DNA of 64,000 nucleotides from Takakia lepidozioides (GCA_030704615.1 CM060731.1:57660001-57724000); one strand, 5' to 3'. Counted from the stretch's first letter, positions 13,001 to 47,719 are shown. A program made the numbers and translations. Notes: generated by a model from the letters alone, not told the origin.

Positions 13001-13530
13001 TGCTGGTGCTGCAGCAGGAGCTTGAGTGGATTTCCCAGCTCCTGTACCCCTTGTCCCACTACTAGTGCTTGCAGTTGGGGATGTTGGTATAGCTGCTGTC
13101 ACCGCTGCCATTGTGCCTCTAGTCCTGGAGACATAGTTAGGTGACCAATACTCTCGCCACTCCTCAATCTCCACCGCATGTCCCCGCCTAAATTCATGGT
13201 AATCATCCATGGGCGGCCCCTCAAGGTGCTGGAATAGCCCCTTCCACGCCATAAAGGGCGTAAACAGTCGTGGATTGTGCATTTGCTGCAAATCATACCA
13301 ACTGTCAAACTTATGTATGAAGTCATCAAGCTCGATGGTGCCCACAGCTCCAGAGTACCTACGTGGCCCCTTGGTATCTCCATACATCTTCTCCATCGTG
13401 TCCTACAACAATGACATGGGAATGACTTGCACCTTCGGCGAGAATCATCCTGACTCCGAGTCTGAACTTTCCTCAGAAGACATTGAAGGTGAAGGTGGCC
13501 TAAACCGTACACCTCATCTTGTGTACCCAC
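10090..13530 (+). mobile_element. Truncated, rearranged copy of the split-repeat Gypsy family 1 (repeat A, leader, inverted gag fragment)
   Basis: Starts TGTCATGG like 29128. Repeat A spans about 10090-10500 and the leader is homologous to 29500-31780. Gag-homologous sequence at about 12770-13530 is on the minus strand. Confidence 0.85.
11790..12275. repeat. Tandem repeats in the retroelement leader (about 90-bp CTCAGACTATACCTCTGTTA units; 21-bp TTGGAGGACTATTTGGGGTCC units)
   Basis: Directly visible. The 21-bp array recurs at 31005-31230. Confidence 0.8.
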
Positions 13531-17671: not shown

Positions 17672-17866
17672 GTGAATGCCTGTTAAATTGCAGAGAGAAG
17701 CTGACGCGTATTCAGAGTAGGAACTAGTGTGATAGGTAGAGTTGGGGTGTTTGCCAGAAGAAATGTAGGCTGCCATTGTCAGCTGCTAGCAGCAAGGTGA
17801 GGATATATGCATGATTTGTGCAGAGGCAGGGATAGCTGAAGGAGCAGGGATAGAGTGTGGGTCCAG

Positions 17867-20800
17867 ATTTGTGCAAGAGGGCCGGATTTCAAGCACAGGA
17901 TTACCCTGTGGATCGATAGCTACAAGAAACCTGCATGGGTAGGTGGTCAACTGGAAGCAGCAGCGGCGGCGGCACAGTTCATAAAATCTGCCAACTCAAC
18001 CATGACCACAGCTTCCGAAAGAGGACCAAGAGAAGGAGTCCACTATGGCAGTTCTGGCACTTCTGGGCATGTGAGGATGCTCTGTGAGGCAGGGCGACTG
18101 AAAGAGGCTCTGCAGACTTTAAACCAAGGTGGCATTTCAGCAGATTCAGATACTTATGTCTGTCTCTTGCATAAGTGCATCAAGATGAAAGGCCTGGAAG
18201 CTGGAAAGCAGGTGCATGCTCACATTATCCAAAGTGGATTCAAGCCAAACATTTTTCTACACAACACCCTTGTCAACATGTATGTGAAGTGCCGAAGCAT
18301 TGTGGATGCTCACCGAGTGTTCATCAGAATGCCTCAACGAACTTTGATCACGTGGAATATAATGCTGGCAGGATTTACCAAGCATGGGTGTGGTAGGAAT
18401 GCTTTGGAGACATATGAACAAATGATTCGGGAAGGGGTGAAGCCCGACCGCATCACGTTTGTTTCTATTTGCAATGCGTGTGCGAGCCTGGCAGCCCTGG
18501 AAAAGGGCAAAGAGGTCCATGGTGACATCATCAAAGCTGGAATTGTACCAGATGTCATTCTCAACAATACCCTTGTGGACATGTATTCCAAATGTGGGTG
18601 CTTCGAGGACGCAAAGGGAGTTTTCAACAATATGGCTAATCGAGATGTGGTGTCATGGAATGCAATGATCGCAGGATATGCACAGCAGGGGCATGGGATG
18701 GAGGCTTTGGAGACCTACGAGCAAATGGTGCAGGAAGGGGTGAAGCCCGACCACATCACATTTGTTTGCGTTTGCAATGCGTGTGCGAGCCTGGCAGCCC
18801 TGGAAAAGGGCAAAGAGGTCCATGGTGACATCATCAAAGCTGGAATTGTACCAGATGTCATTCTGGACAATACCCTGGTGGACATGTATGCCAAATGCGG
18901 GTGCATCGAGGATGCAAAGGGGGTGTTCGACAATATGGCTGAACGAAATGTGGTGTCTTGGAGCGCCATGATCGCAGGATATGCACAGCAGGGGTGCGCG
19001 ATGGAGGCTTTGGAGACCTATGAGCAAATGGTGCGGGAAGGGGTGAAGCCCAACCACATCACGTTTGTTTCTGTTTGCAATGCGTGTGCGAGCCTGGCAG
19101 CCCTGGAAAAGGGCAAAGAGGTCCATGGTGACATTGTCAAAGCTGGAATTGTGCCAGATGTGATTCTGAACACTACCCTGGTGGACATGTATGCCAAATG
19201 TGGCTGCATCGAGGATGCAAAGGGAGTGTTTGACAATATGGCTGAACGAAATGTGGTGTCGTGGAGCGCCATGATCGCGGGATATGCACAGCAGGGGTAC
19301 GGGAAGGAGGCTTTGGAGACCTATGAGCAAATGGTGCGGGAAGGGGTGAAGCCGGACCACATCACATTTGTTTGTGTTTGCAATGCGTGTGCAAGCCTGG
19401 CAGACTTGGAAAAGGGCAAAGAGGTGCGTGGTGACATTGTTGAAGCTGGAATTGTACCAGATGTCATTCTCAACAATACCCTTGTAGACATGTATGCCAA
19501 ATGTGGGTGCATCAAGGACGCAAAGGGAGTGTTTGACAATATGGCTGAACGCAATGTGGTATCGTGGAGCACATTGATCGCAGGATATGCACAGCAGGGG
19601 CGCGGGATGGAGGCTTTGGAGACCTATGAGCAAATGGTGCGGGAAGGGGTGAAGCCCGACCACATCACGTTTGTTTGCGTTTGCAATGCGTGTGCGAGCC
19701 TGGCAGCTCTGGAAAAGGGCAAAGAGGTCCATGGTGACATCATCAAAGCTGGAATTGTATCAAATGTCATTCTGAACAATACCCTTGTGGACATGTATGT
19801 CAAATGTGGGTGCATCGGGGATGCAAGGGGAGTGTTCGACGATATGGCTAAACGAGATGTGGTGTCGTGGAGCACGATGATCGCAGGATATGCACAACAG
19901 CAGCGCGGGATAGAGGCTTTGGAGACCTATGAGCAAATGATGCGGGACGGGGTGAAGCCCGACCACATCACGTTTGTTTGCATTTGCAATGCATGTGCAA
20001 GCCTGGCAGCCCTGGAAAAGGGCAAAGAGGTCCATGGTGATATCGTCAAAGCTGGAATTGTACCAGATGTCATTTTAAACAGTACCCTTGTGGACATGTA
20101 TGCTAAATGTGGGTGCATCGAAGTTGCAAAGGGAGTGTTTGACAATATGGCTGAACGCAATGTGGTGTCGTGGAGCGCGATGATCGCAGGATATGCCCAG
20201 CATGGTTGTCATAGGGAGGCTCTGCAACTGTTTGAAGGAATGCAAAAGGAAGGCTTGAAGCCGGACAGTATCGCCTTTACATGTGTTCTCTCTGCATGCA
20301 GCCACACTGGCCTTCTGGATGAAGGAAGACGCTACTTTGATTCCCTGAGTCAAGATCATGGTGTCACTCTGACAGGAAAGCACCTGGGCTGCATGGTGGA
20401 CCTTCTTGGACGTGCTGGGCAATTGGATGAGGCAGAGGACCTCATCAATAAAATGTTAATCAAACCAGATGTTGTGGTGTGGAAGGCTTTGCTTGGTGCC
20501 TGCAGAATCCACGGCAATGTGGAGATGGCTGAACGCGCAGCAACAGCTATTCTCAAGTGGGATGACCAGGATGCCGCAACTTATGTGTTGCTATCAAACA
20601 TCTATGCCGCAGCTGGCATGTGGGACGACAGTGCAAAGATGAGGAAAGTGATGAAGGTCAGAGGGGTTAGAAAGGAGGCAGGTCACTGCTGCATTGAGGT
20701 TGGCAACAGGGTGCACACCTTTGTTGTAGATGACAATTTGCATCCCGAAATTAAGGAAATCCATGCTGAGCTGGGAAGATTGTCTGGGCAGATGAAGGAG

Positions 20801-21085
20801 GCAGGGTATATGCCTGACACGGGCTTTGTATTGCATGATCTGGGGGAGGAGCAAAAGGAATTCTCTCTTTGCCACCACAGTGAGAAGCTGGCCATTGGTT
20901 TTGGGCTGATCAGCACGGCCCCTAGGACCCCTCTCCGTCTCATCAAGAATCTTCGGGTGTGTGGTGACTGCCACACTTCCACCAAGTTCATCTCAAAGAT
21001 TGTTGGCCGAGCAATTGTTGTACGGGATGCTAACCGCTTTCACCACTTTGAAGATGGGGTTTGTTCTTGTGGGGATTACTGGTGA
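17867..21085 (+). CDS. PLS-class pentatricopeptide repeat protein with E1-E2-DYW deaminase domain (terminal exon; begins with second half of PDF motif 3)
   Basis: Open frame of about 1070 codons: L-S, six P-L-S triplets of 101 aa, P2-L2-S2, E1/E2, then DYW with HSEKLA, CGDCH and CSCGDYW. Acceptor GTCCAG| at 17866. Confidence 0.97.
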   Translation: MCARGPDFKHRITLWIDSYKKPAWVGGQLEAAAAAAQFIKSANSTMTTASERGPREGVHYGSSGTSGHVRMLCEAGRLKEALQTLNQGGISADSDTYVCLLHKCIKMKGLEAGKQVHAHIIQSGFKPNIFLHNTLVNMYVKCRSIVDAHRVFIRMPQRTLITWNIMLAGFTKHGCGRNALETYEQMIREGVKPDRITFVSICNACASLAALEKGKEVHGDIIKAGIVPDVILNNTLVDMYSKCGCFEDAKGVFNNMANRDVVSWNAMIAGYAQQGHGMEALETYEQMVQEGVKPDHITFVCVCNACASLAALEKGKEVHGDIIKAGIVPDVILDNTLVDMYAKCGCIEDAKGVFDNMAERNVVSWSAMIAGYAQQGCAMEALETYEQMVREGVKPNHITFVSVCNACASLAALEKGKEVHGDIVKAGIVPDVILNTTLVDMYAKCGCIEDAKGVFDNMAERNVVSWSAMIAGYAQQGYGKEALETYEQMVREGVKPDHITFVCVCNACASLADLEKGKEVRGDIVEAGIVPDVILNNTLVDMYAKCGCIKDAKGVFDNMAERNVVSWSTLIAGYAQQGRGMEALETYEQMVREGVKPDHITFVCVCNACASLAALEKGKEVHGDIIKAGIVSNVILNNTLVDMYVKCGCIGDARGVFDDMAKRDVVSWSTMIAGYAQQQRGIEALETYEQMMRDGVKPDHITFVCICNACASLAALEKGKEVHGDIVKAGIVPDVILNSTLVDMYAKCGCIEVAKGVFDNMAERNVVSWSAMIAGYAQHGCHREALQLFEGMQKEGLKPDSIAFTCVLSACSHTGLLDEGRRYFDSLSQDHGVTLTGKHLGCMVDLLGRAGQLDEAEDLINKMLIKPDVVVWKALLGACRIHGNVEMAERAATAILKWDDQDAATYVLLSNIYAAAGMWDDSAKMRKVMKVRGVRKEAGHCCIEVGNRVHTFVVDDNLHPEIKEIHAELGRLSGQMKEAGYMPDTGFVLHDLGEEQKEFSLCHHSEKLAIGFGLISTAPRTPLRLIKNLRVCGDCHTSTKFISKIVGRAIVVRDANRFHHFEDGVCSCGDYW
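18340..20200 (+). repeat. 303-bp near-identical tandem coding repeats (P-L-S triplets)
   Basis: The period of 303 bp is visible in the DNA and in the repeating antisense ORFs. Confidence 0.95.
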
Positions 21086-24891: not shown

Positions 24892-26550
24892 TCAGAAACA
24901 GAGGGGACACCTGATCAAACCATTTTCGTTGCAATCTGGGCACCGTGCCACCTTGTTCGTGCATGTTAGGACCTTGCAGCTTCCACTGCACTCTGGACAT
25001 GGAACGAATCGGACTCCTCCACAACCATCACACTGTCTCCGAGTTGTCTCAGTGGGCATACCTTTGACCAGTTCGGCCAGCCTCCCTTCCTCATGCAGCT
25101 GGAGGACCTCCTCTATCCCTCCAATGTGGCATCCTTTGATAAAGACTCTTGGAACTGAAACTTGTTTCCCGAGGAGATCTTTCAGCTCCTGACGGAACTC
25201 AGCATGCATTGCTAGGTCCCTTTCATCGACTCGCACACTAAAGCCCTGCAGAATCATTCTCAAACTAGAGCAATTTTCAAATGTTTTCCTGATTCCACGC
25301 AAGCTAGTAGTATAGAGGACGACTCTCTCCTCTGCACCCGGAGGGCATTTCTTCTCAAACTTTTCCAGAGGCTCCGGACGTTCTATTGGCTTTCTGTCTT
25401 CCGTATTTAAAGGAGAAATCTTCGAGGAGGAAATTTTCCTGATACCCCCACCTCCCAATGAAGCCTCAAATTCAGTCCTTGACAATCCTGTTTCTCCGAC
25501 ACTCCTACCCAAGTCTGTATCGTGATGCCCTCCAAAGAAGGCCCATCCAATTGGACTGTCATCATCCGTGGTGCTTGCTGAAGACGAAGCACTGCCCTCC
25601 CCATCACAGCCCCTACCATTGTACCATCCATCATCCGACGAAGTGCGCTCTATCGAACTCGCAAAGGCCGCAACAATGTCGGGATCAAATAAGTTGTCTG
25701 CGTTGCTGTCTTCTCTTAGCTGACCTGGTGACTTTGGGATGAAGCTGTTCCTGGGAACTGCACGGCGGTTTGATTCTCGGGTGAGATCGGATTCGACTGA
25801 AGGTTCAATACTAGGAAGGACTCGATGTTCTCGATGACCTGCAGCATTAGAAGCTGTGCGGACACCATCCTTTGCATTCGCTGAAGGAGTTGGTGCCGGA
25901 TTTATCTCCAGATGGCTTAGAATGCTCGTATCGAACCCGGTCAGTGCATCAATCGATGAGAGGGAGCGAGTTCTTTCCAGACTTCTCACCCTCACTGTTG
26001 CAAGGGTAGTCTTCTCCACATTATGCACTTCATTCACTGTACTCGCGTCCCGCGGCTGCAAAAAGAAGGGAGAAATGCGAGGAGTCACATCATCAAGTCC
26101 CTCCATAAGCTCCCATGTGTTGATGACTTCTGGTTCCTCGTACTGATAAATGTTAGTGGTGTCTCTCAAAGGTTTCCTCTCCCCTTCTAATTTCTTTTTG
26201 ACCAAGCTGAACTTTTCGTCAGGGGGACTCTGGATCTCCATCTCGGACCATGGATTCTCAAAACCCTCTTCCCTCGATGGCGGCATCGAGTCCCACTTTT
26301 TCATCTTCTTGTACATGGGTCCATCCCCACGAGCGCCTGCAATGACAGCAGCAAGACCTCGATCCATATTCTCTGACTCGACCAGCTTCATGATGCCATA
26401 GGTGCTGGATGTCAGCGCTACCACATGGAAGTCGTATTGCATGTATGACTTCTTATGAGTGCGTGCCATGGACAAGCTTCTAGAGATTAGCCCTCCTCTC
26501 TCCCTATCTGAACCCAAAGTTGCCACGGACTTTGAAGACTTGCAGCCCAT
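24892..26550 (-). CDS. Glutaredoxin-domain protein with C-terminal Cys-rich domain (plant GRX-like family)
   Basis: Intact 552-aa ORF with an MGC N-terminus, 'HVVALTSSTYG', 'INTWELMEGL', 'VVLYTTSLRGIRKTFENC', 'VPRVFIKG.HIGG' and four CxxC motifs ending 'CNENGLIRCPLC'. Confidence 0.95.
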   Translation of the reverse strand: MGCKSSKSVATLGSDRERGGLISRSLSMARTHKKSYMQYDFHVVALTSSTYGIMKLVESENMDRGLAAVIAGARGDGPMYKKMKKWDSMPPSREEGFENPWSEMEIQSPPDEKFSLVKKKLEGERKPLRDTTNIYQYEEPEVINTWELMEGLDDVTPRISPFFLQPRDASTVNEVHNVEKTTLATVRVRSLERTRSLSSIDALTGFDTSILSHLEINPAPTPSANAKDGVRTASNAAGHREHRVLPSIEPSVESDLTRESNRRAVPRNSFIPKSPGQLREDSNADNLFDPDIVAAFASSIERTSSDDGWYNGRGCDGEGSASSSASTTDDDSPIGWAFFGGHHDTDLGRSVGETGLSRTEFEASLGGGGIRKISSSKISPLNTEDRKPIERPEPLEKFEKKCPPGAEERVVLYTTSLRGIRKTFENCSSLRMILQGFSVRVDERDLAMHAEFRQELKDLLGKQVSVPRVFIKGCHIGGIEEVLQLHEEGRLAELVKGMPTETTRRQCDGCGGVRFVPCPECSGSCKVLTCTNKVARCPDCNENGLIRCPLCF

Positions 26551-28323
26551 TTTGGAGTTCCGAATTCAAACCGGTTATCCTAAAGGTTTGCACGACATTT
26601 GTGGATCCACTCTTAAAATCTGGTACTAGACTCGCTCTGCCTTGGAAAAGGCAGAATGCAATCCTACCAAGCTCAATTGAATGCTGGCGTATCGCTTCTT
26701 CTGCCAGAGGTCCGCCAGACATATGTGAGGAACGGTACGTCAGCAAGGTTCGCAATGAACTGCGAGAACGAGCACACAAAGCATAATTCAGAGCGCATTC
26801 TCCAGATATCCTTCCCCCAATATCCCTTTCACTTGTAACGAAATGAAAAACCAGAACAAAACTAGCAATTTCAAATTCCCCCGAGCTCTTTCTCAAGTTG
26901 TCCTTGCCTGTGCGAAGAAATTGGGAGTCTCCCCCGTCAGCCACACTCAGCGCAACCCCGGCTCTTCCCCTCCAGCCCGATAGCTATGGCGGCGTCCTGG
27001 AAGGCGGCAGACGAGACGGAGAGACTGCTGATCCCCCGCAGCCGTCAAGCAGCGCGCTGGGCCCACTGCAGTGCGCGCCGCTGCCCGTTTCTTCAAAATT
27101 TCCCAACATCCAAGGAATGTTTCCAAATATTTATTTATTTCCAGCCTGCCCCCTTTCCAGCATTTTCTCGTTTGTAGTTTAGTGGGATCGCGGGTAGGTA
27201 CGGATGTGTATGCGACACAAATAGCAAAAACGAGGCAGTGATGAAGGCAGGAATAGTTTGGCAGACATTCAAATTTATAGCCATAGTTAGCAACAGGATG
27301 CAGGCAGCAGTAAATGCTCAAGGAACCCAGTCTGTACATACGGTTATGCAAGTCTTCGCATATCTATTAAGCACTGGATTTGGGTTTTCTTTTCTTTCTT
27401 TCTTTTTTTTTAACCTTTTTTTATAAAGTTAACAGGGGGATTGTAGCCCTGATAAATTTGATTGAAAGGTAAGAAAAAAATAACCTTACAAAGAGCCATA
27501 AGGCAGATTAATGAGGCACCACTCCGAACCAGGAACCTGCAAGGGAGGGGGGAGGAGAGAGGGAAACAAAGTAACTTAGAGTCACCTCAAAGATCCAAGC
27601 ACTGACCTGAAAGCCAGAAGGGAGGCTCCAGCAATCTCATTAAAAGCTACCAGAGAGCCAGCGTTCAGCAAGTCCATCTGAACTATACTAAACCTAAGCA
27701 ATCAAAGGCCAATCAAATAGCCTTTTCTTTTACTTTTACTTTTTTTCTTAAGAAAAAGAGAAGAGGGACTGAGGCCTTAAAACTTTTTTTCTTTTTTTCT
27801 TTTTTGGATTAACAGGGGATGCCTTTTGAGTTTTATTCAGAATTATTGAGGGGAAAAAAATTAAAACCCCGATTACGCCATAAGGCACACACACCGTTTT
27901 CAGTGAAAGGAGAACCTATCCTCTCATGCGGAGAGACTGATCAAGAATCCATAGCGAACTGCTAGACTAATTTCAAGGTTCTAATAAGCTGGAACGAATC
28001 TTAAGGGCCGATGTTGAAAGAAGAGACCAAGGCCTAATTGAGTGCCGGGTTCCTATCTAAGAGCGCAAGTGTGGAAAAAGCATGTGGGGACTTACAGTAA
28101 CCAAAGCGAAACACGAAACTTTATATAGAAGGACATGAAGTCCAGAAAATACAGAGGAAAAAATAACCTCTAAACCAAGTGCCATGGAGGCTGATCTAGG
28201 AAGGCCAACTTTTTTGTATAATGGTTTTTTAACAGATTGATTCTGGTGGCATTTGGCCTTGCAGCCCACACCGTAATGCCATGTGGAAAGGTTGTAGCAC
28301 CGAATGGATCCAAAACACACCTA

Positions 28324-28836: not shown

Positions 28837-31800
28837 TAATAGGTATATCCGTCCAAGTCGCATCCGTCGCATAGGAATCACTGACTACTTCCCAAAATCA
28901 AACTTCTAGAGGCTTTAAAGTATTCTTAGTAGACGACAATCATGATCACAGTTCAATATGTTGAGTAGAGAAGGGCCATGTCACGTATAATATTTAATAA
29001 ATTAATTTTTAAGTATGAGGTATTGAGTTATTCTCATCAATATATGAAGTAAGGTACTTTGTTTGTTTGTTTTGTTTTGTTTTTAGCGTTGAGATCTCCG
29101 CAAACCGCGGACCCAGCCCTTCTCTTTTGTCATGGTTTTTATCATGGTTAACTAGAATTACCTACTTCTAGTTAACTAGGATATTTTGGATATTCATATT
29201 TGTATTTTGTGTGTTGGGACTTCATTTGGTCTCACATGCCAAGTGAGGTGTCAAACCTCACTTGGGACATGGGGATGGGTTTTCCCCTTGTGAGCGTTGA
29301 GGATGGCTCATCTTCTGGTAGTTGAGCCTCCATGAGCCTCTCCCACCTCCATAGCTCTAGGTATTGAGTGGGAGTGTGGTGAGGGCTTTGTAGGGTGGAT
29401 TCCTTTAGCAAAGGTGCCCTTGGCTTGACTTAGTTTATGTGATTGAGTGGATTCATGAGTGGAGTGTTTCCCTTGTGCTCACTTTCATTTTCACTACCAG
29501 AAGATGACCTTATGCCTGTGAGTGCGGAGTGTAAGGGTTAGTTTAGCACTTGTGTGTTGAAGAGCTTGGGAAGATAGCTCTTGTGTTGCAAGGTGTTACA
29601 TATATTGCAAAGGAAAATCCTTGTGGTGTTAGGGCTTTGAGAGATATTGCTTTGCCCTAAGGAGGTGGAGAGCTCAAAGATGGAGCTCTTGTAGATCACA
29701 AGCCTTTGCAAGGAAAGGTACTTGTGGTGTTACACCAAGGTGTTGGAGAGCTCAAGAATGAGCTTGTTGCCACAAGATTTGCAAGGATTGCAAGAGAGAA
29801 GTCTTGTGTGTGTAGAAGCACGGATTCTAGGGTTTGAGAATCTTTTCAATGCATTATGGAGTCAATGATGTGTGCCATGGCTTGTGGAGAGCAACTAAAT
29901 GATTGTTAGTACTCATTTCACTATCAATCTAGGGTTAAGCAAGCTCAAGTATGGATGTTGTGGAAGAGAAGCCAAGAAGCTACATAAGCTTGGGCTTGAA
30001 GACAACAAGGGCAAGCACTTGGAGAGCATTAGGAAGCTCAAGAGGTTTGAAGGGAAGCATATAAGTGAAAATTCTATCCATGATGATGTGAAACCAAGCC
30101 TAGAGCATTGAAGAGCTTAGAGCACATGTGGGAGATCATTGGAGGTGGCCTTCATGAAGAAAAGAGATTGTGGCTCAAGGCATGCATAACAACTTCAACC
30201 ATAGACTAGCATGTGACAAGACAAGGAAGGGGAAGGTGAAGCTCATGTATTCATTCCCTTTTGGCTTAAGTTTTGTGGTGGATGGTTGATCAAGCAAGTG
30301 ATGCTTATGTGGAGCATGCTTCCCAAGTGTGGCTTCCAGCTTGAGGAGAGCTAGAAGGTGAAGGGAGCAAGTTGATTCCCTTGTGTATGAAGTGATGCAT
30401 GTGTGGAGCATGCTTTGGGCTTGAGCAAGCTTGAGAGGAGTGACTCTTGAGCTAGCAAGTGAAGGGAGCTTGAAAGACCAAGGCTTGAGAGGAGACAAGG
30501 CTTGGTGGCTTGCCAAAGGAGGTACAAGCTTGATTTTGAGTTCCAATGAGAAATTGAGCTTGTTGTATGGCCAATGCATTGCTGGTTGAGTTAGAGACAA
30601 ACTTGAGTAGCTTAAGGTGAAGAAGATCAAGGGAATTTGCCTTGGTACCCCATAGAATTCATGGATGCTTGAGGGGATTAAGCATAGAGCCCCAAGGAGC
30701 ACAAACCCTAGCTTGGTAAGGCTAAACCTCAAGGAAATAGAGGGGCAAGTGGCTAAAGCCTAGGGGAAAATGGCTAAACCCAGGGGGAAATGGCTAAACC
30801 CGAGGGAAATGAACTACTCTATGAGGGGGAAATGGCTATTCCTAAGGAGAATACAAGGGAAATACAAGGGGAATACGTATAGGCCCAGGAGAATATTGGG
30901 GGAATACTATGGCATATTCTTAGGAATACTCCTAGGGAACTTATTGGGAACCCATTGGGAACTTGGGAACGCATTGAGAACATGGTGACATAGGAAGAGT
31001 CCTCGGAGGACTGTTTGGAGGACCATTGGGAGTCCTTGGAAGACTGTTTAGGGTCCTTGGGGGACCAGTTGGAGTCCTTGGAGGACTGTTTGGGGTCCTT
31101 GGAGGACCATTTGGAGGACCATTTGGAGTTCTTTGGAGGACTATTTGGGGTCCTTGGAGGCCAATATTTGGCGAGCTTGAGAAGTCTTTGGCGACTTGTG
31201 TGAGGGACTATTTGGGGTCCTCGAGGGCTAAGTTTTGGCAGGCTCTTGGGGCCTTGGTGTACTGTTTTGGAGTCCCATTGTGCAAGGATTGGGAGCCTTA
31301 GTGAGATTGTTTGAGAGACATATTCTTGAGGGCTTCTGGAGAGTTATTTGAGAGACCCTTGAAAGGTAGTCTTGTCTATTGTTCAAGCAAGAGAGTGTGG
31401 AGATAGGGTAGTGGGATGAGGGCATGCTGGGATTAGGAATTGCTTTAGTCTCTCTTACTTGTAGTCTTTCACCCTCTCTGTAGGCCAAAACCTTTCCGTA
31501 GGTGGAGGCAAGAGTCAGTCCGGGTTTGGGCTGGGGTGTCATTGTAGGAGCGACACTGTGGAGTGTTTTTGGTGTGGGGGAGTTGCTGTTTTGTTTTTCT
31601 TGTGTTTGGATCCCCTCCACACCTGCATGCTTGACTGTGCGCCATGTTAGCTTTGTGTGGGCGTTTGTTTTCATAGGAGGTTGGTCCGGATTTGATCACC
31701 GGCCAATCCTAGAGCGTGCTGTCGGTGGTGAGGCTGGGGTGATGACCAGTCAGACCATAATTGTTTATCTTCTAGTGAGGTTGGGTTGATGACCAGCAGA

Positions 31801-31958
31801 CTATATGAGTACTTGCAGTGGATGCAGGCGCAGGTTTATGTTACGAACCTAGTAGTTTAAGCCATAAGCCGCAACTGGTTCTCTACCCGGTTACCTTGTG
31901 GAAAGGGGGATTAGAGACAGGTTTACAACAGGTGTGGTTGTGAGTTTTCATCACGGAG

Positions 31959-33850
31959 GTGCCACTAGTTGCTGAGGAGAGTACCGGTACGAGCACCAGC
32001 AATACTAGTTGGTATACAAGACGAGGTGTGCGGTTTAGGCCACCTTCACCTTCAGTGTCTTCTGAGGAAGGTTCAGACTCAGAGTCAGGAGGATTCTCGC
32101 CGAGGGTGCAAGCCATTTCCGTGCCATTATTGTGGGATACAATGGAGGAAATGTAGGGAGCTACTAAGGGGCCACAACGGTACTCTGGAGCTGTGGGTAC
32201 CATCGAGCTTGATGATTTCATACAGGAGTTTGATAGTTGGTGTGATTTGCAGCAGATGCGTAATCCACAACTGTTTACGCCTTTTATGGCGTGAAAGGGG
32301 CTGTTTCAGCACCTTGAGGGGCCGCCTATGATGACTACCATGAGTTTAGGCGGGGACATGAGGTGGAGATTGAGAAATGACAGGTGTATTGGTCACCTGA
32401 CTATGTCTCCATCACTAGAGGCATAAGGGCAGTGGTGACACCGGCAGCTACACCGGCAGCTTCTGCAAGCAGCAGTGGGACGTCAAGTGGAACAGGAGCT
32501 GGGAAGTCCACCCAAGCTCCTGCTGCAGCACCAACACCCGTGCCTGCCTTTAACCCAGTTGTGGAGTTCTTCGAGGAGTTGAGGAGAAACTACCAAGAGA
32601 TAAGGACAGAGAAGTTGCGGAGCTTGCAAGAGTTCCAACGAAGGTCTACTGAGAGTTTGAGGGAGGCTTACACTTGCATAAGGCGCTTGATTAACGTAAC
32701 CCAAGGGGTTACATAAGCTTAGGCAGTCCAATTCCGGTATGGGATATTGGACAAGGAGCTGAGGAGAAGGGTGCGGGTCTCCTACAAGTGGCCCAACCTA
32801 CCTTAGCAAACGTGTTTTTGCTGGTAGAGCGGATAGAGCTCAATATGGTGGAGGAGCGAGTGGTCATGGTGGGGTTTGGTAAGGAGACACAACGAAGTGG
32901 GGCTCCTAGCCAACAACAACCACTACCCCAACGTGCTCAAGGCAACAAAGGGGCTCAGGCGAAGCCTAGGGAAGGGCCGAGAGGATCTCAATTGCAGAGG
33001 TCACTTCCTTCATTCTTAGGCCAACAACAGTCGGGTGTGACATGTTGGGATTGTGGAGGACCCCATGTTAAGAGAGATTGCCCGGAGAGAGTCAAAGGGC
33101 CGGCACAGGCACAGCCTACACAACTACAATGTGGGCATTGTGGCAAGTATGGGCATGAAGTGGCCCATTGTTATGACTTGCATCCTGAGCTACGGCCAGG
33201 CCAGTTCCAAGGGAACAATGGTGGCCGAGGACGAGGCAATGTAGTCCAGAGAGGTAGATGAGGCAGAGGTCGTGGTGGAGGTCGTAACCAAAACCAAGGA
33301 GCACAGGGTCACGGTCAAGGTCATGACCAAGGCATGGTAGATAGGCTTGCCCAGCTAGAACAACGTCTTGCTACCATGGCCACTACTCATGTTGCGCCAG
33401 CTCCAAGGCCTGAGGTTCAAGCCCCACTTGCACAACCTCCTATGCCTAGGGAAGACCAGATTGGTATGGGCTTCATGTGTGGAGCCGATGTATCGGCACT
33501 ATCTACGGGGATAACGGATAAGGTGCAATGCATGAATGCCCTGGATTCAAGGGTGAAGACAACCACAGCTGCGCCGTGGCAAGCGGTAGCTGCAAGGTTG
33601 CAGAAGTTGCCAGCTAGGCCAGCCATTGAGCGCAGTATGGTGACTCCTGGGGTAGTCCTGGTGGACAATCAGGATGGTGTGTTTCAGTTGGGTGGCCTAG
33701 CTGGGAGGAGGTATAGGCCACTGCAAGTCTTGTTGGACTCGGGAGCACAGCCATTGATGTTGGGGAAAGCAGCAATTGCAGGCTTGGGCCTTACAGAGGC
33801 GGATTTGGAGCCTTACCCTTTCCAAATTCAAACATCTTTGGGCGGTTCAT
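31959..33850 (+). pseudogene. gag (two zinc knuckles) and aspartic protease of family-1 element
   Basis: CWDCGGPHVKRDC, CGHCGKYGHEVAHC and 'VLLDSGAQP'. Several stops and frameshifts. Confidence 0.88.
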
Positions 33851-34440
33851 AGAAGACACGAGGGATTACACGCCATGAGCTCTTCATTCGATTGCAGCCA
33901 GATCATCCTACAGATGGCTCTGTCATGAGAGCTAAAGCCATTGTTACGGACGCGATGTCTTATGATGTGGGGGCTGTGTTATACCTGATGGGCTTTACTT
34001 TGGACTTTTGGGAGGAAACAACATCCTACAGGCCGGAATGGCAGTCAGGGGATGGTCGACGTGCACTGCTCCCAGTGCGGTTTATTGGGAATGTAGCGGT
34101 GGATCATAGGAACATGATGCCCACATTGGCTGCATTCTCAGGGGTGGTGGCTTGGGGTGATGAGCTCTTGGAGGGCAATAGCCATGCAGATGATAGGCCA
34201 CCACTTGATGAGGACAAACAATTGGCATACAAAGCTGATTTGCTTCCTCATGTGCCTATTCATATTCTACTGTGGGGTACAGTTAGGAATTTGCATCGAG
34301 TAGCAAGCGAGTGTGTGCACCAAGCATGGCAGGAGGCCTATCCATTAGTGAGTGAGGGGAGTTCAGTGACATCACCTGGACCTCCTCAGTTAGCTCATTT
34401 GGACACAGTGCCCATTACCTGGCAACCACCTGACTCAGGG

Positions 34441-35305
34441 ATTTGTTTGCTAGACATGTTTGGAGGTATGAGCACTGGTCTTGCAGGAGTGTTGCAAGCA
34501 GGGATTAAAGTACGCAAGTACTTGTATGTGGAGAAGGATGAGATAGCTTGGCGTATTAATATGCGTCACATCGCCTTGCTCACACACCGGTATCCTGAGT
34601 TGTTGCATTTCTCAGCAATTCAAGGGTATCAAAAGGCCTTGCCAGCAGACATTATCTTGCTGGGGGCGGATGATTTGGACCGGCATAGTGCCATTGACTT
34701 GGTGATAGCTGGATGGCCTTGCCAATGACATTCTCTCGTAGGTCATGGGAATGGCTTGCATGATGCACGATCGCATTTGTTTTGGGAGATGTTGCGAGTG
34801 TTGCGGGACTTGCAGGTGAGGCAAGTGCAACCTCTAGGCTATATCTTGGAGAATGTTCCTCTTATGGGGGATTCTCGGGCCAGGGTAATGGCCAGTGTGC
34901 ATCAGGTGCGGTCTTGGATTGGATTGGCGGTGCTATTGGATGCAGCAGCAATGGGATCACGCGCGCATCGATCTTGATTGTGGTGGACCAATCTTGCACC
35001 ACCAGAGCTACTCAAGAGAGCATATGATTCCATTCAACGGCCACCCAATCTCACGGTTGAGGGCATTTTGGACCAAAGGAGGCAACCACAGAGGGTGCAA
35101 CATGATGACCGTCCACCTCTAGCAGTGGTCAATCGAGTGGGGCAGCCACGTACAGCTTTGCCTACGCTCATGAGCTTTCCCTCGTCTCATGCTTTTCGAG
35201 ACAATGGTCATGGGTTGATTTGGGACAGTGTGCTACAGCAATTGGTGGAGACCAATGCGGATGAGCGCGAGCGGGTGGGGTTTGCCACGGGCACTACATC
35301 TGTGC
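34441..35305 (+). pseudogene. Retrotransposon-encoded DNMT3-like C5 cytosine methyltransferase domain
   Basis: Motif I LLDMFGGMSTG, II YVEKD, IV LVIAGWPCQ, VI ILENV, VIII SRAHRS*LWWTNL, IX ERERVGF. In-frame stops are present. Confidence 0.88.
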
Positions 35306-35399
35306 CAGCTCAACATGAGAAGGATTGCTTGTACCAATGGCGGTTCCTACAACGAGCCAAGAGGTTCAAGTGGGAGGGGACTCACCTACTCCAAGTATG

Positions 35400-35593
35400 G
35401 GAGGATAGATCCCAACCTTGCAGTGGTATTTGCAGGATTGCATTGCATGCTATGTGGGCATGTTGGTAGTGCTGCCACCATGTTAGTGTGTGACAAATGC
35501 TCAAGGGGGTGGCACATGGGATGCTTGACACCGCCACTTGAGGACGTTCCTAGTGGAGAATGGTTGTGTCCACGATGCCTTAGACATAGGTAG
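35400..35593 (+). pseudogene. PHD finger (C-terminal extension of integrase)
   Basis: CMLC...VCDKCSRGWHMGCLTPPLEDVPSGEWLCPRC (C4HC3). Confidence 0.92.
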
Positions 35594-36389
35594 TGGGCAT
35601 GACAATGGTGGAGTTGCCAAGTGATCCAAGGTCTAGCTGGTAGGAGTTCAATGCCATAGATACTCAACTGAAGATCATGGATTGCATGAAGGCGACTAAC
35701 GATGGGGCTACGTTTGCACCCGGCCTCTTGATCTATCGACTTTAGGTGTTGGGACTTGTGCAATTGAAGACCAAACGATGATTTTATTGAGATGGATACT
35801 TGTCAGCTATCCGGTGTTAGAGGGACCTAAGCACCAGCTAGGGGGGCGATTGTGGCATAGCTTTCTAGGATTGTGTGCTTAGAGTGTATGGTGGACAGCG
35901 ATGTATGTTGTGGCACGATGCTTAGGTGCACGACAGCTGTCATGGTTTTGGTCATGGTTAACTAGAATTACCTACTTCTAGTTAACTAGGATATTTTGGA
36001 TATTCATATTTGTATTTTGTGTGTTGGGACTTCATTTGGTCTCACATGCCAAGTGAGGTGTCAAACCTCACTTGGGACATGGGGATGGGTTTTCCCCTTG
36101 TGAGCGTTGAGGAGGGTTCATCTTCTGGTAGTTGAGCCTCCATGAGCCTCTCCCACCTCCATAGCTCTAGGTATTGAGTGGGAGTGTGGTGAGGGCATTG
36201 TAGGGTGGATTTCTTTAGCAAAGGTGCCCTTGGCTTGACTTAGTTTATGTGATTGAGTGGATTCATGAGTGGAGTGTTTTCCTTGTGTTCACTTTCATTT
36301 TCATTGTGGCATAGCTTTCTAGGATTGTGTGCTTAGAATGTATGGTGGACAGCGATGTATGTTGTGGCACGATGCTTATGTGCACGACA

Positions 36390-37680
36390 CCTTGGTACCT
36401 TTGGAAAACTCTCGATGACCTCCCGCAATGTGGGAGTTGCGTCCGGCGGACGCTTGCGTCCAGTTTGCCCCGGCCATTAGGATGAGGAGGGGTACACACC
36501 GGCTTGGTCTCATGATTTTTGGACCTGTTGTGTGGGAGATATCGAATTTCAAGTACATTAGGTCGCTGGAAATTCGCAAAAAATAGCAAAGTGGGCTTTC
36601 CTGCAACAATGATTGGCCCTTCATTTGTCTTTTGTGCCCGTGGACATAAATATAAATTGGGCTTTTTGGAAATACTGGCGTTTCACAATATTGTTTGTAG
36701 CGTCCTTGAGATCTCCCAAATTGCGGGCCCAAATGTACTACAATGCTTGGTGCCATTGGAAAGCCCTCCATGAGGACAGGTGCACCGACTCGGTTTCACA
36801 AAAGTTGGACCTATGGGCCGAGAATTATAGAAATATGAACAAGTTTTGGTGGTTGCTGAAAATTCAACTAAATTACAAAATTAAGTGTTGGAATGACATT
36901 GGAGGTCACACTTGGGCCTCTACATTGGAGATGCACTTCGATACATAGGAGATTGCACTTGGGCTTAGATGGGCCTTAATATAGTAGACGCACTTGGATA
37001 CATATGAAATTGCACTTGGTTTTAGATTCCAATTCTTCACACATGGGCCAATGACAGAGGATACCTAGTCAATATATGAAGCAAGGTAGTTTGTTTGTTT
37101 GTTTTGTTTTATTTGTTTGTTTTGTAGCGTTGAGATGCCCCAAACCGCTGGTGCTTGGTACCGTTGGAAAGCCCTCAACGAAGAGGGATACACATGCTTG
37201 GTCTCATGATTTTCAGAAATGCAGTGTGGGAGATATGGAATTTCAAGTACTTTTGGTCGTCGGAAATTCGTGAAAAATAGCAAAGTGGCCTTTCTTAGAA
37301 CAATGATTGGATAAATTACTGCTCAATAAATTCATGGAAAAAAAAAAATCTGATCTTTTCAATATATGAAGCAAGGTTGTTTGTTTGTTTTTTGTTTTGT
37401 CTTGTAGCATTGAGATCTCCCAAACCGCAGGCCCAACCATGCTGCTTGGTACCGTTGGAAAGCCCTCGATGAGAAGGGGTGGAGTGACTTGGTCTCATGA
37501 TTTGTGAACATGCGGTGTGGGAGATAATGATGGAATTTCAAGTACTTTTGATCATCGGAAATTCGTAAAAAAAAGCAAAGTGGGCTTTCCTACAACAATG
37601 ATTGGCCCGAGACTTATGGAATTATAAACATTTTTTCAACTAAATTACAAAATCAAGTGTTGGAAGGACAGTGGAGGTTG
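36390..37680. repeat. Dispersed non-coding repeat in several tandem degenerate units (also 29050-29127 and 60130-60730)
   Basis: Recurring GAGATCTCCCAAACCGC...TTGGTACCGTTGGAAAGCCCTC...GTGGGAGATATGGAATTTCAAGTAC with (GTTT)n tracts. Confidence 0.75.
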
Positions 37681-38490: not shown

Positions 38491-38717
38491 ATGGCAGACA
38501 AGCAAACATTGATCCGCTCATCTTTTCCTAAAATAGGCCGGGAATAGTATGAGCTTGCTCAAGCTCAAACACTAGAGGAGATCTCACGCTAAGTTGTTGC
38601 TAGCAGGTTCGTGACTGTACAAAGTCAGAAGAGGCATGTAGGACGTCCCAGAAAGATCTTGGAAGCAGCTTTGTTTGAACAACCACTTCGGAAAACAGTC
38701 AAACAAGAAGACAATGG
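38491..38717 (+). pseudogene. 5' part of a pogo-like DDE transposase, split by the retroelement
   Basis: AT-hook 'GRPRK'. The frame joins 57564 onward (…KQEDNG|QHEKKKKQRGSYTNWF…) once one ATGG is removed. Confidence 0.75.
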
Positions 38718-39490
38718 TGTCGTGCGCATACGTATCGCTACACAACTACATCGTTGTCCAAGCCACATCACACATATATGCACAATAAAGTACAAAAGCT
38801 AAAAGGACACACACTCTCAACACAAGAAATATGAAATCCATCGCTATCACTCTTTAAAATAGAAGTCGAGCCAGGGGCACCCCAAGCTATGGGGACTCCA
38901 CCCCACAACAACCTACACTCCCATCATAAGCACACTCAGATCTAAACGCATGAAGGAGCTCGGTCGCGCAGGCTCAACTCGAGAGAGATGAACTGCGCGA
39001 CTGCCGCTCTCGTGAAGATAAGACGGTTCAGGTGTCAAACTAAACTTGACACCTGACTTAACACTTGACCTAAATCCAAGTATTAAGTACAAATAACTAG
39101 CTTTATTCTAGTCGTTTTCACACTGTGCTTATTTAACTTGACAGCTGTCGTGCGCATACGTATCGCTACACAACTACATCGCTGTCCAAACCACACCACA
39201 CATATATGCACAATAAAGTAGTCTGCCACAATCGCCCCCCTAGCTGGTGGATAGGTCCCTCTAACTCCAGATAGCTACAAGATGTATTAGCCACAGCCGT
39301 ACTAAGTCCTCTATCACTGTCCCTATCGTACTCAAACTCTATCGACCAAGAGGCCGGGTACAAGAGTAGCCCCATCGTTAGTCGCCGTCTTGCAATCTGT
39401 GAACTTGAACCAGGATCTCGTGTGTTCAAGGTCTCCTAGTAGCTGGACCTTGCGTTTCTTGTTAGCCTTCCATGGTTGTATCCACTCCCA

Positions 39491-40900
39491 CTATCCAATG
39501 CAATGTGGACATAACCAATCCCCATCTGGAACCATCTCAAGAGGTGGAGTCAAGCATCCCATATGCCAACCTCTAGAGCATCGATCACACACCAGAATGG
39601 TGGCTGCCCCTTTAGCAGACCCACACAACATGCACCTCAAACCTGCAGATACCACTGCCAGGTTTGGGTCAATCCTGCCATCGACATTCGGAAGGTGACA
39701 TGGCGCACAATTACGCACATGGTCCTTCCAAGTTATGCCATCCCGACCCTCCAAGACCAAGACGCCTGAGGGCAAGACCTCTCGAACCCTCAAAATAACA
39801 CGTCATGCAGTCACATCTAGGGTCGTAGGAGCAGTCTGCTGCAGATAGACATAGTCACCAGGGTTGAATCTCCGAACCCCATGACGATAGCCCCCACCAC
39901 GTATGGTAGCATACCTCAACGTATCACGGTGTTGTGCAATGGCATGGTTCTCGAAAGCCATGGGTTCTGACTCTCTTGAACAACTCTGCACGCTGCTCAC
40001 ATGCACGTGCCCACAAGTCCGGATCGTCAAGGTTAAGAACTATAGCAGCTTCTCTGCGAATGGATGTAGGCAAATCCGGCTCTCGGCCAAAGAGAAGAAA
40101 GTATGGTGAGAAGGAGGCAAGTGACGCTTGCTTGCTGAACCTGTAGCCCATGGCTAACCAGGGTAACTGAAGGTCCCAATCTCCTAGGTGTCCCTTCTGC
40201 AAGCCATACTTGCGCAAACCCCTCTTTACTGTCTGAACAACTCTCTCTGCCAAGCCATCGGCCTCAGGATGATCCCGAGAAGTGGTGCGGTGGTCTATCA
40301 AGGCCTTGTCACACAAAGCCTGAAACTCCCCCAATAACTCTCTCCCTTGGTCCGTGAGTACCTCAGCTGGAGTACCGAATCGGCTAAGCACACAATCCAA
40401 GAATGCATACGCAGCTCCCTCACTAGCCTTATCAGGCAATGGAACCAATTCAATCCACTTGGAGAAGTGCTCCACCATCACCAACACGTACTTGTTGTGG
40501 CGCATGGTCAGTGGCAACGGCCCTGCAAAGTCAAGACTCCACCTGTAGTCCAATCCCATGATCGGAAGAGGGTGCAATTGTGGAGTAGGGGCGTTGAATG
40601 AAGCACGCACCCTATCACACACCATGCACCTAGCCACAAATTGTTGCACCTCTGTGTGCATACCACGCCACCAATACTGCCTCTGCAGTAGACTATGAGT
40701 GCGTCGCACCCCAAAATGCCCCAACTCCTCATGGGCATGCCGCACTAACCGTGCCCGCTGTGTTGGGTGAGGCACAATCCTCACTCGACCATCCTCCACA
40801 CTCGGACCAGGTGTGTCCCCTCCCACTTGAACCTCTTGGCTCGTTGTAGGATCCGATCCCTCTCCTTAGCAGTCACAGTGGCTGCAGTGTCTCCAGTGCG
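39491..40900 (-). pseudogene. DDE integrase with HHCC zinc finger and C-terminal PHD finger
   Basis: HAHEELGH...CMVC, WSLDF, LTDQG, AERVVQTVK, SPYFLLFG. PHD: CMLC...CDRC...HMGC...WLCPHC. Frameshifts are present. Confidence 0.95.
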
Positions 40901-41014
40901 GAGGTAGTCCAACACAACTGAATCCTCATGTATATCTTTGGCGCCACATTGCTCATTGCTGGCCTCAGGGTCCTCAGACACTTGATCTACAGTCATCCCT
41001 GTTGCAGGTCCAAC

Positions 41015-42520
41015 CTAGCCTTCCGCTGCCAAGATACACAGAAATGCAGATGCATGCCATCCGGGCACCATCTCCTCGTCCGTCTCACCATGCCACCGAG
41101 CTCCAGTGTCATCCTGCTGGCTCGTGCATGGATTGCGACTCAACCCATCTGCATTGCGATTGACCAAACCTGGTCGATGCACCACCTGAAAGTCATACTC
41201 TTGAAGGATGAGTGCCCACCGTGCAAGCTTCCCCGTAAGCTTGTTTGACTCCATCAACCACTTGAGTGGTTGGTGATCCGTGACAAGGGTGAAGAGATTG
41301 TCGTATAGATAGCACCTAAAGTGTGCCACGGCCCACACTGCAGCTAAGCATTCTCCCTCATATGAACTATACTTAGACTCAGCAGCATTGTTCGAGCGGC
41401 TAGCGTAAGCCACTACGAACTCTCTTCCCTCATCATCCACCTGTGTGGGCACCGCTCCAAGCCCCAGCATGCTCCAATCTGTATGCAGCTGAAAAGGACG
41501 CCCCCTAATAGGTCGTCTCAAGATGGGCGTTGAGGTCAACCTCGCCTTGAGCTCTTGAAAAGCTTGTTCTTGCTCATCTTCCCACTGCCACTCCTGGTCC
41601 ACCTTGGTCAGCTTGGTTAGAGCCTTTGCAATGGCACTAAATCCCTTAACAAACCGTCTGTAATAGTTTGCTAACCCCATGAAAGCTCGAACTCGGCTCA
41701 CATCCGTGGGGCGTGGAACCTATGCAATGGACTCTACCTTAGTCTGTTGTACCCCCAATCCTCCAGGATATATCATGTGACCTAGATACTCAATCTGGTT
41801 GTGGAAAAACTTGCACTTTCCCGAATGTAACTTCAATCCGTTCGTCCTCAAGCGCTCAAATACCCCCTGAAGGTGTCTCTTATGCTCCTCCACCGTAGCA
41901 CTAAAGATGATGATGTCATCTATGTAGCACCGAGCAAACTCCACCCCTGCTAGAATCCTGTCCATGACCCTTTGAAACTCAGCAGGAGCGTTTTTAAGCC
42001 CAAATGGTAAGAACCGCCACTGGTATAGGCAATCCTTCCCGTGCTCATTGATCCCCCAGAATGTCGTCTTTTGCTTATCCGCCTCCTTGATCGGCAACTG
42101 GTGATATCCGGATCGTAAATCCAACGTGTTAAAGACCTTAGAATGCCCAATGGCATCAAAGATCTCCTATGGTGTCGGCATGGCATACCTATTGAACTTG
42201 GTCTGACGATTTACAGGCCGGTAATCACCGCACATACGTCTCTCCGTCCAATTGCCATAGACATCCTTCTTGGCTGGCATCACTGTGGCTGAAGCATACT
42301 CTCCACCAGATAGCTCCACCAAACCTGGCTCCCAAAGATCCTGAGTTCTCATCTGAATCAAGGACCTCTCCATGTCACTGTATCTATAGGGTCTCCGAAA
42401 GATTGGCGTGTCAGTAGCCAATTCAATGCGAATCTCTTGACCCTTCAGTGCTCCCAAGTTCTTCAAACTAAAGGCAAAGCAATTCCTGTAAGCCCTCAGG
42501 AACCGCCGCATATGTCGTCT
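41015..42520 (-). pseudogene. Ty3/Gypsy reverse transcriptase and RNase H
   Basis: RMCGDYRPVN, DLRSGYHQ, PFGLKNAP, YIDDIII, YLGH. RNase H: LHTDWS, GECLAAVW, TDHQPL, NADGLSR. Confidence 0.96.
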
Positions 42521-42939
42521 CTCTCCTCCGGTGACAATGGGTCCAATGTCAGGCTCCCAATTGTCCTCCGTAACTGCAACCTTAAGTCCAGTGGGCATAG
42601 AGGTAGAGGACGCGTCCCGTGGTTGCTATGCTACAACCTCTTGAGCAGTACTACCTTCCTGCTCAGTCAATGACAAGGCCTCATCCTGCCCCATCATCTC
42701 ATCATTGAGAACCTCCTCAACCCGAGAAGAATCCCCAACCTCATCCATCACAGCTGTCTTGGCTGCCAACTCCCTCTGGACCTCGAGCACCTCCCACGTG
42801 TGTCATGGATGTCTACACCCCGTGGTCCTCACCGGCTTGCCCCCACTCGCTGCCTGTACCGTCTCGGTAGGCAGAGAGACCGTCAAGGGAAGTGCACTCC
42901 GCACTTTACGTTGCTCAGCCGTAGCCAAGCTGATAATCC

Positions 42940-43305
42940 AGGTCAAGCAATTGAGATCCATTGCTTGCCCCAACACCTGACGACATGATGCCTCAGAAAG
43001 AGAAGGCACCGCCGTGGTCCCAGTGGAAAACCCCATAACCCGCTCTCGCTTGTCGGCATTAGGCTCCACTAACTGTTGCAACTGAGCATCCCACAGGAGG
43101 CCAGGTCCACCATCCCGAAAAGCATGGGATTCTGGGAAGCTGAGCAGTGTAGGTAATGCTGCTCGTGGTTGACCCACCCTGTTGACCACTACCAAAGGCG
43201 AACGGTCATCATGTCTCACACGTTGAGATTGCCTCCCTGTGTTCAAAATGTTGTCCACTATGAGGTGTGTTGGCCGCTCCACCCCATCAAATGCACGCTT
43301 GAGCA
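42940..43305 (-). pseudogene. C-terminal half of DNMT domain (TRD and motifs IX-X)
   Basis: 'EPNADKRERVMGF' and 'RQVLGQAMDLNCL'. It continues in frame from 49642 after the CACTA is removed. Confidence 0.85.
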
Positions 43306-44004
43306 CACTAGAAGCATTCGTGTCTTTTCCGAATCGACTGCATGTCCAAAACCACTGAGGGAATAACTTTGAGATGTTTGTTACTACTGCACAGTCGTAA
43401 CGGATAAATTCACATTTCTAATGGCGGATAGAAGTTGCATCAATGACTCCACAGTCGGCACAATATTCGTGGCGATTTAATTCAATTACGTAATTTTTTT
43501 TTAAAAAAAAACAACAATTACAAGTTGTTTTAAGCACTAGAGAACGACTCTTAACAACTAGGCATTCATTGCACACCCTATTCAAAAATGGAATTTTTAT
43601 AAGTGCTCCACATGGCTCATGACGTGGAATATTTTAATGTATTTTAGGGCTTGTGTGGCTCATAGATATTGTTCTAATCGTCGGATGTAAAATGATCTAA
43701 GGGTGGAAGAGTAACTTTGTCCTTTGCCTGAATTTGTCTAAGTGTTGGGAGAGGGATGGAGGCTTGAGAGAGAGACGAACAAGTGATGCGAGAAGGACGA
43801 AGACCAAATCGAGGCCCATGTCCTGTTGTTGCAAGCGTTTATGGCGTCAAGGGCGCATTATGTGCAAATGTGGGCTCTTGGCTCCCCTTTGTACCATGAT
43901 TTGGTATTCTTCCTGATGATCACAAGGTTCTTGGGGGAATCAGCTTGGTCTTAGCAACCCATATTTTAATCTCTGCCCGCTCAGCTGCACCGTGGTGGTT
44001 CTTA

Positions 44005-47560: not shown

Positions 47561-47719
47561 TGTTTGCGTTTGTAGTGCATGTGCGAGCCTGCTGGGGAAG
47601 GGCAAAGAGGTCCATGGTTGCATCGTCAAAGCTGGAATTGTGGCAGATGTCATTATGAACAATACCCTTGTGGACAGGGAGTGTTCAACAATATGGCTGA
47701 GCGAAGGATAGAGTGTAAT

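Follow-up and report, generated by a model that had tools for sequence, protein, structure and literature searches.

Three copies of a Dnmt3-containing gypsy element

A 64,000 bp stretch of Takakia lepidozioides DNA (CM060731.1:57660001-57724000), the whole of which is referred to here as the window, contains three copies of a retrotransposon with an unusual terminal organization, raising the questions of what primes reverse transcription in these elements and how a split repeat arrangement is restored upon insertion. Comparison of the window with itself shows two elements with the layout A1-internal-B1-A2-B2, E1 (29128-36389, + strand) and E2 (57559-38718, - strand), and a truncated third copy, E3, that is a 5′ part only. 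All three are Ty3/gypsy retrotransposons related to KnitGypsy-Dnmt3 (gag-PR-Dnmt3-like, RT-RH-DDE integrase-PHD). The coding regions of E2 are interrupted by stops and correspond to gag, protease (PR), a Dnmt3-like methyltransferase (DNMT), reverse transcriptase (RT), RNase H (RH), a DDE integrase and a PHD finger. In E1, RT, RNase H and integrase are mostly gone, and the element is non-autonomous. The coding features are:

29508-35839, + strand: E1 internal region, with a 5′ leader, gag-PR-DNMT remnants, RT/RH/integrase mostly deleted, and a PHD finger at ~35444-35580
49589-52950, - strand: E2 gag (with CCHC zinc knuckles), protease and the first part of the Dnmt3-like methyltransferase, broken by stops
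39494-43300, - strand: rest of the E2 DNMT, RT, RNase H, D,D(34)E integrase and PHD finger, with stops and frameshifts and an in-frame TAG at 42626-42628
39927-40790, - strand: E2 integrase with D,D(34)E spacing (34 in the clade, 35 in outgroups)

The Gypsy order PR-RT-RH-integrase is present in E2 and its relatives, and the best solved match of the integrase is Ty3. The methyltransferase within the polyprotein is a Dnmt3-like C5 enzyme: a segment of E2 is 68% identical to the DNMT region of protein P0001, which carries PF00145, and the DNMT of an intact relative (L007) has DNMT3A, DNMT3B and DNMT3C as its best solved matches. The broken E2 DNMT pieces alone gave no Pfam match. The closest named proteins come from Calypogeia, Riccia and Marchantia (74-83% in RNase H), and there are further relatives in Sphagnum, Klebsormidium and Closterium. 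In a FastTree tree, the E2 RT-RH region clusters with four proteins of K. nitens at a split support of 0.96; the models of these proteins have no DNMT match and are not tied to the published KnitGypsy-Dnmt3 copies.

Relatives were fetched using an RT-RH alignment, and we used the best 80 of at least 539 confirmed metagenome loci together with six genome loci; most represent two families from a few short-read assemblies. Viral contigs scanned for related elements yielded no loci. Two of the relatives (L081 and L082) are eukaryotic retrotransposon contigs inside a genome (G001) labelled as a cyanobacterium, probably as a result of bin contamination. In the relatives L007 and L081, both intact, the coding sequence is divided into two in-frame ORFs, gag-PR-DNMT followed by RT-RH-INT-PHD. 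No tyrosine recombinase was found in nine frames of L007 and L081 or in the E2 segments scanned, and there is no chromodomain match after the integrase, where a PHD finger is located instead. The second Asp and the Glu of the integrase are separated by 34 residues in 48 of the 49 motif-matched proteins (of 138), with a spacing of 35 among the 49 only in an arthropod protein (P0039); the spacing is also 35 in the ordinary element L084, and the one-residue gap is visible when the integrase is aligned to Ty3.

The stop between the two ORFs reads TAG-CAR-YYA (e.g. window 42620-42628, - strand; L007 5083-5091; L081 3489-3497; L006 9680; L058 2724), which we take to be a leaky readthrough context as in plant viruses. 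If it is leaky, the DNMT would be produced at Gag-like levels and Pol via readthrough. In most second-family loci no such motif was found. The TAG at 51479-51481 was considered as a gag-pol readthrough stop and rejected, as the Marchantia proteins have Gln at that position; the conserved stop is the one after the DNMT. In four proteins (P0018, P0019, P0020 and P0135) the DNMT lies between RNase H and integrase rather than before RT, and the domain has thus moved within the clade.

The DNA of the window is from a plant and includes a PPR-DYW gene, of the PLS class with E and DYW domains and seven 303-nt repeats (17840-21085, + strand), the 3′ end of which is duplicated at 8854-9277; there is also a host gene with a glutaredoxin domain (24892-26565, - strand). 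An insertion of ~6.3 kb (~43310-49655) splits the E2 DNMT and contains PPR-like fragments (~43750-44900) that resemble the PPR-DYW gene, as well as other repeats. Part of the E3 gag region (12740-13530) is inverted relative to the E3 5′ part.

Primer-binding sites complementary to the elements' own repeats

An earlier note on this DNA had reported that the sequence immediately after repeat A has no TGG start and is complementary to a site within A in all three copies, and both observations are confirmed for E1, E2 and E3. The segments concerned are:

29308-29322, + strand: E1 self-primer segment, with transcription predicted to start at 29308-29310
29493-29507, + strand: E1 primer-binding site (PBS), complementary to 29308-29322
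57393-57407, - strand: E2 self-primer segment, pairing with 57188-57202
57188-57202, - strand: E2 PBS, pairing with 57393-57407
10272-10283, + strand: E3 self-primer core, pairing with 10500-10511
10500-10511, + strand: E3 PBS, pairing with 10272-10283

The pairing is Watson-Crick at 15 of 15 positions in E1 and again 15/15 in E2 (57407-57393 with 57202-57188), with a sequence unlike that of E1. A perfect 15-mer complement inside A has a chance expectation of ~4e-7, or 3e-6 when six start offsets are allowed. When A was shuffled in 2-nt blocks, the duplex score of E1 and that of E2 were each matched in 0/200 trials. The claim for E3 stands in part: there are 12 bp with two G-U pairs at the homologous position, but 14/200 shuffles match the score, so that E3 alone is not beyond chance and counts by position only. 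The first paired bases, A29493 and A57202, are best read as part of the PBS, which corrects the boundary of A to 29492 in E1 and 57203 in E2.

Two further features of this region are recorded here. A splice-donor-like GTGAGT lies ~12 nt past the PBS in E1-E3 (~29519-29524; 57171-57176, - strand; 10527-10532), before a leader of 2-4 kb. In both E1 (29307 and 36117) and E2 (57408 and 38992), A1 has C and A2 has T immediately before the primer; the E2 A repeats differ at only 2/352 positions, and with n=2 the C/T difference may be chance.

The complementarity had also been described as co-varying, and the comparison across copies bears this out. In a six-row alignment (E1, E2, E3, L081, L007 and L003, with the structure taken from E1) nine of the 15 pairs change on both sides and 96% of cells pair; the L003 row of this alignment (A3) begins within its primer and contributes only six of 15 pairs. 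None of 500 column shuffles, which ignore relatedness, reached the observed covariation, and slid registers pair at 36-49%. At position 29317, contigs in four runs all have T where E1 has G; the E1 G is present in both LTR copies with C in its PBS, and E3 has T with A in its PBS, so this is one more compensated pair. L007 and L081 have a further primer/PBS pair, with the two differing by a clean two-base compensatory swap. The large second family has an unrelated primer/PBS pair (AGTTTTTCTAGAATT / AATTCTAGAAAAACT), and in 18 of 18 rows its best LTR-PBS duplex falls at the homologous position. Of the 22 rows from the window and the relatives together, 17 have ≤10/200 shuffles reaching the duplex score; those whose duplex did not beat shuffles are E3, L003, L053, L055 and L064. 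When leaders were folded from the primer start, the primer/PBS duplex was present in all five predicted folds (z -3.2 to -5.4).

Start of transcription

The earlier note placed the start of transcription at about 29308 in E1 and about 57407 in E2. Support comes from the second family, in which a TATA box begins 31-34 nt before the first primer base in 17/17 loci, and from L007 and L081, where the primer start has a CA dinucleotide with a TATA-like hexamer 29 nt ahead of it; none of E1, E2 and E3, however, has a canonical TATA at -30. A start at the primer 5′ end or within a few bases of it is therefore supported by analogy with the relatives, and the corresponding positions in the window would be 29308-29310 and 57405-57407. 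In E2, L007 and L081 the primer lies within a hairpin whose start is upstream of it, and because of this and the lack of a canonical TATA in E1-E3 the RNA of these elements might start earlier; in E1 the start could be at 29308-29310 or slightly upstream. The hairpin was considered as a universal feature and rejected, with z values of -3.5 to -4.3 in E2, L007 and L081, -1.1 in E1, and no hairpin in L058 and L080. A bacterial promoter scan gave no match and is not applicable here.

The pairing could be structural, acting in leader folding, packaging or translation control, with priming provided by a host tRNA, a tRNA fragment or another RNA. There is a TGG near the end of A1 in two of 18 relatives, and ARAGORN found no tRNA genes within the window or 33 loci. 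However, PBS sequences vary from family to family but follow the LTR of their own element, the PBS starts where the LTR ends, its partner starts at TATA distance, and both TGG cases are single A-to-G changes in a PBS that still pairs with the LTR. We regard a purely structural role as quite improbable, and Tf1-like self-priming in these elements is well supported by the sequence comparisons. We found no description of self-priming or of an integration route for this clade in the literature covered, which lies outside subscription papers and Repbase.

Split repeats and their joints

The repeats, attachment ends and joints of the three copies are:

29124-29127, + strand: E1 left 4-bp target duplication, CTTT; the right copy is CCTT (36390-36393), with one C/T difference
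29128-29492, + strand: E1 repeat A1, putatively downstream U3 + R + U5; left attachment end TGTCA
35840-35848, + strand: E1 polypurine tract (PPT), directly before B1
35849-35935, + strand: E1 repeat B1, putatively upstream U3; ends CGACA
35932-35941, unstranded: E1 internal attachment palindrome GACA-GC-TGTC, at the B1/A2 joint
35938-36302, + strand: E1 repeat A2, 97.8% identical to A1; primer copy at 36118-36132
36303-36389, + strand: E1 repeat B2, 97.7% identical to B1; exact join to A2; right attachment end CGACA
57203-57559, - strand: E2 repeat A1; left target duplication CCAT at 57560-57563
39233-39241, - strand: E2 PPT
39146-39232, - strand: E2 repeat B1
39140-39149, unstranded: E2 internal attachment palindrome GACA-GC-TGTC
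38793-39143, - strand: E2 repeat A2, 99.4% identical to A1; last 5-6 nt missing
38718-38792, - strand: E2 repeat B2, first 12 nt missing; right target duplication CCAT at 38714-38717
10090-10499, + strand: E3 repeat A1, in a truncated, partly inverted copy with remnants to ~13530; no B found

A PBS directly follows A1 and a PPT directly precedes B1, both in the window and in relatives. Standard reverse transcription would yield B-A-internal-B-A from these positions, and the true LTR is thus B+A. The earlier note read A as part of U3 + R + U5, and the position of the PPT supports A as downstream U3 + R + U5, with B as the upstream part of U3. That note also proposed that self-priming explains the split structure, and it does account for why the 5′ copy can be without B; it does not explain how B2 ends up after A2. 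With any primer, ordinary LTR reverse transcription would end in B-A-internal-B-A, so a further step is needed.

The integrated ends are TGTCA at the start and CGACA at the finish, and are not the predicted cDNA ends. At 15 insertion sites with both ends the target duplication is an exact 4-mer in 11, has one C/T change in three, and matches at 2/4 positions in one. No B was found upstream of A1 in any of 20 independent 5′ ends (17 locus sites and the three window copies). Both E1 and E2 carry B2, as do L082 and another 22 independent insertions. Duplicates of one insertion were removed (L018/L024, of L019; L042, of L041; L056, of L063; L065, of L035; L033, of L026; and L043, of L036). The pattern is not imposed by the method, because two ordinary gypsy elements from the same search, L083 and L084, come out with full LTRs, TGG sites and flanking duplications. 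L084 (8723-11086) is an ordinary-LTR gypsy with integrase upstream of RT, an order that is Gmr1-like (PMC8557442).

The two joints behave differently. The B1/A2 joint consists of the right end, 2 nt, and the left end, forming the palindrome GACA-GC-TGTC, which occurs exactly twice in the window, once in each of E1 and E2. The spacer is 2 nt in all 24 independent insertions (GC in 14, GT in five, AC in four and TA in one; this count is without L010, where B1 is missing), and GT and AC represent single C-to-T changes on either strand. At the A2/B2 joint the U5 end and the PPT end meet exactly in 14 of 24 insertions and there are indels in the other ten (this count is without L035, which has unrelated sequence after A2; L082 is omitted from both). 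Six of the indels alter 1-2 nt within a short A/T run and four are larger deletions, E2 included. The difference in indels between the A2/B2 and B1/A2 joints is significant (Fisher p=0.0006), and elsewhere the paired repeats have 14 gaps in 5357 aligned bases. The A2/B2 indels are nearly all different, and the two copies with an added A (L031 and L055) are not sisters in a tree that is nearly star-like and poorly resolved. Within each of seven elements, the A and B pairs have diverged by similar amounts (e.g. 2.2% and 2.3% in E1, 7.7% and 7.8% in L003).

One explanation for B2 is that it arose by duplication after insertion or is an assembly artefact. The relatives are short-read contigs and one-B copies (A-internal-B) are common, with 16 loci listed; L036 and L043 share both flanks and have different forms at one site (A-internal-B and A-internal-B-A-B). 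Against this, B2 recurs in the many independent insertions noted above, the target duplication lies outside B2, and the layout has been published for K. nitens (PMC5890265, as far as its available text goes), such that this explanation is barely credible. The A-internal-B copies were also considered as proof of one-LTR-circle integration and rejected as such: with L036 and L043 at one site, B-by-B deletion or assembly collapse suffices.

Origin of the permuted layout

The repeats could also derive from a route like that of PAT and Ngaro, in which the RNA runs through B2, the A2/B2 joint is inherited, and a full-length circle closed using the B1/A2 joint as template is then opened by integrase. 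Such a circle route is the model from the tyrosine-recombinase literature. It has the attraction that PAT, Ngaro and VIPER share the A1-B1-A2-B2 layout (in the accounts available), that it requires no special rule for B never preceding A1, and that 14/24 A2/B2 joints are exact. However, the PBS after A1 and PPT before B1 give B-A-internal-B-A, skipping B2, and the A2/B2 joint corresponds to the two predicted cDNA ends. Moreover, its ten indels are nearly all different, the two copies with an added A are not sisters, no tyrosine recombinase was found, and target duplications are present. We consider this PAT/Ngaro-like route unlikely.

We think it likely, from the sequence features, that the RNA of these Dnmt3-containing Ty3/gypsy elements self-primes and that the A-internal-B-A-B form results from joined cDNA ends and an integrase cut at the internal palindrome. 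In the first step, the first 12-15 nt of the RNA would act as primer on the site just after A1, with which pairing and covariation are observed, and RNase H would release the 3′ end by cutting after the primer, as it does in Tf1. In the second, standard LTR reverse transcription from the PBS and PPT positions would give a linear B-A-internal-B-A product. In the third, integrase would cut after CA on both strands in the palindrome of the upstream LTR; the TGTCA and CGACA ends, the 4-bp target duplications and the internal CA-GC-TG palindrome are the observed basis for this. Cutting after CA on both strands would give ordinary processed retroviral ends. In the fourth, the natural cDNA ends would be joined, moving B to the right end; the observed basis is the A2/B2 joint, exact in 14 of 24 insertions and with indels in ten. 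Either the host could join the ends, ahead of strand transfer or following it, or RT could do so by a template jump.

This model of joined cDNA ends and palindrome cleavage requires a bias to the upstream LTR, because a free two-LTR circle has two palindromes and A-B-A-internal-B is never seen. As a guess, the upstream LTR may be double-stranded long before the downstream one and be bound first. If self-priming and an LTR of B+A both hold and the substrate is instead a free closed two-LTR circle with either palindrome cut at random, the A-internal-B-A-B form would be an exact permutation of the circle, and retroviral integrases can cleave palindromic LTR-LTR junctions (the available text of PMC1180852 and PMC4372172, for foamy virus and HIV-1). 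Half of the insertions would then be expected to be A-B-A-internal-B, so the 0/20 5′ ends with B upstream disfavour random cutting, and it seems to us a very doubtful alternative.

Comparison with known systems

KnitGypsy-Dnmt3 of Klebsormidium nitens (de Mendoza et al. 2018, PMC5890265) is described, in the available text, as having Gypsy domains, a Dnmt3-like methyltransferase in the polyprotein, and a DIRS-like A-coding-B-A-B arrangement. The window elements share all three, and the family and its repeat layout are thus already known from that report. Unlike that description, in the elements here the DNMT ends ORF1 and an in-frame TAG separates it from RT, and the family extends to liverworts and Sphagnum. 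On priming, target duplications, attachment sites and how the repeats arise the same text says nothing, and the supplementary figures may hold more.

The Tf1 PBS is complementary to its own 5′ RNA rather than a tRNA, and self-priming is established there (PMC4600332, in the portion available); among plant elements it is predicted for 12%, in Tcn1 and TAR (PMC6317226, likewise). Tf1/sushi, Tj1, Tcn1 and TAR thus resemble the window elements in having a PBS complementary to their own 5′ LTR and no tRNA-type TGG, but they have two complete LTRs flanked by the target duplication, where the window clade has split repeats. Tcn1 has a chromodomain, in contrast to the PHD finger, DNMT and D,D(34)E integrase of the window clade.

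As far as the sources available describe them, split direct repeats are otherwise a feature of tyrosine-recombinase elements, and PAT, TOC, Ngaro and VIPER share the A1-B1-A2-B2 arrangement with the window elements. Those encode a tyrosine recombinase, whereas the window clade has a DDE integrase, PBS, PPT, TG...CA ends and 4-bp target duplications. The clade is like Tf1 in its probable mode of priming, without the Tcn1 features tested, and PAT/Ngaro-like in layout without being a member of that group.

A parallel to the proposed route is in foamy virus and HIV-1, for which the accounts available describe integrase cleavage of a palindromic end-to-end junction, giving processed ends. In those viruses the palindrome is created by the meeting of the cDNA ends, and the provirus is colinear. 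In the window clade the LTR itself encodes the palindrome, the attachment sites are not the natural ends, and all insertions are permuted. The circle junctions of the IS3 family are a similar case.

Implications

Two-LTR circles are mostly regarded as dead ends, with few reported exceptions (PMC1180852 and PMC4372172, in the text available). Every insertion of this clade appears to depend on end-joining and on cleavage of an internal palindrome, and the clade offers a natural test system. We found no published mechanism in the literature covered, the element family and its layout being already in print. The proposed route offers a mechanism for the Gypsy-with-DIRS-repeats layout of K. nitens and suggests how split direct repeats can arise from an ordinary LTR, and the clade adds a probably self-primed plant lineage outside Tcn1 and TAR. 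Those LTR finders that rely on a target duplication flanking an LTR pair would misdefine or miss these elements, and the elements are very abundant in Takakia lepidozioides. Marchantia carries relatives, and experimental tests are therefore practical. Extended to the whole green-lineage clade, the sequences make it reasonably probable that the cDNA ends are no longer used for integration and that a permuted, end-joined genome is always integrated, through a ready-made att-att palindrome in the LTR, with self-priming in place of a tRNA and with a D,D(34)E integrase, shorter by one residue, that suits this geometry. If true, this would be a lineage of LTR retrotransposons in which joining of the cDNA ends is obligatory, not a dead end.
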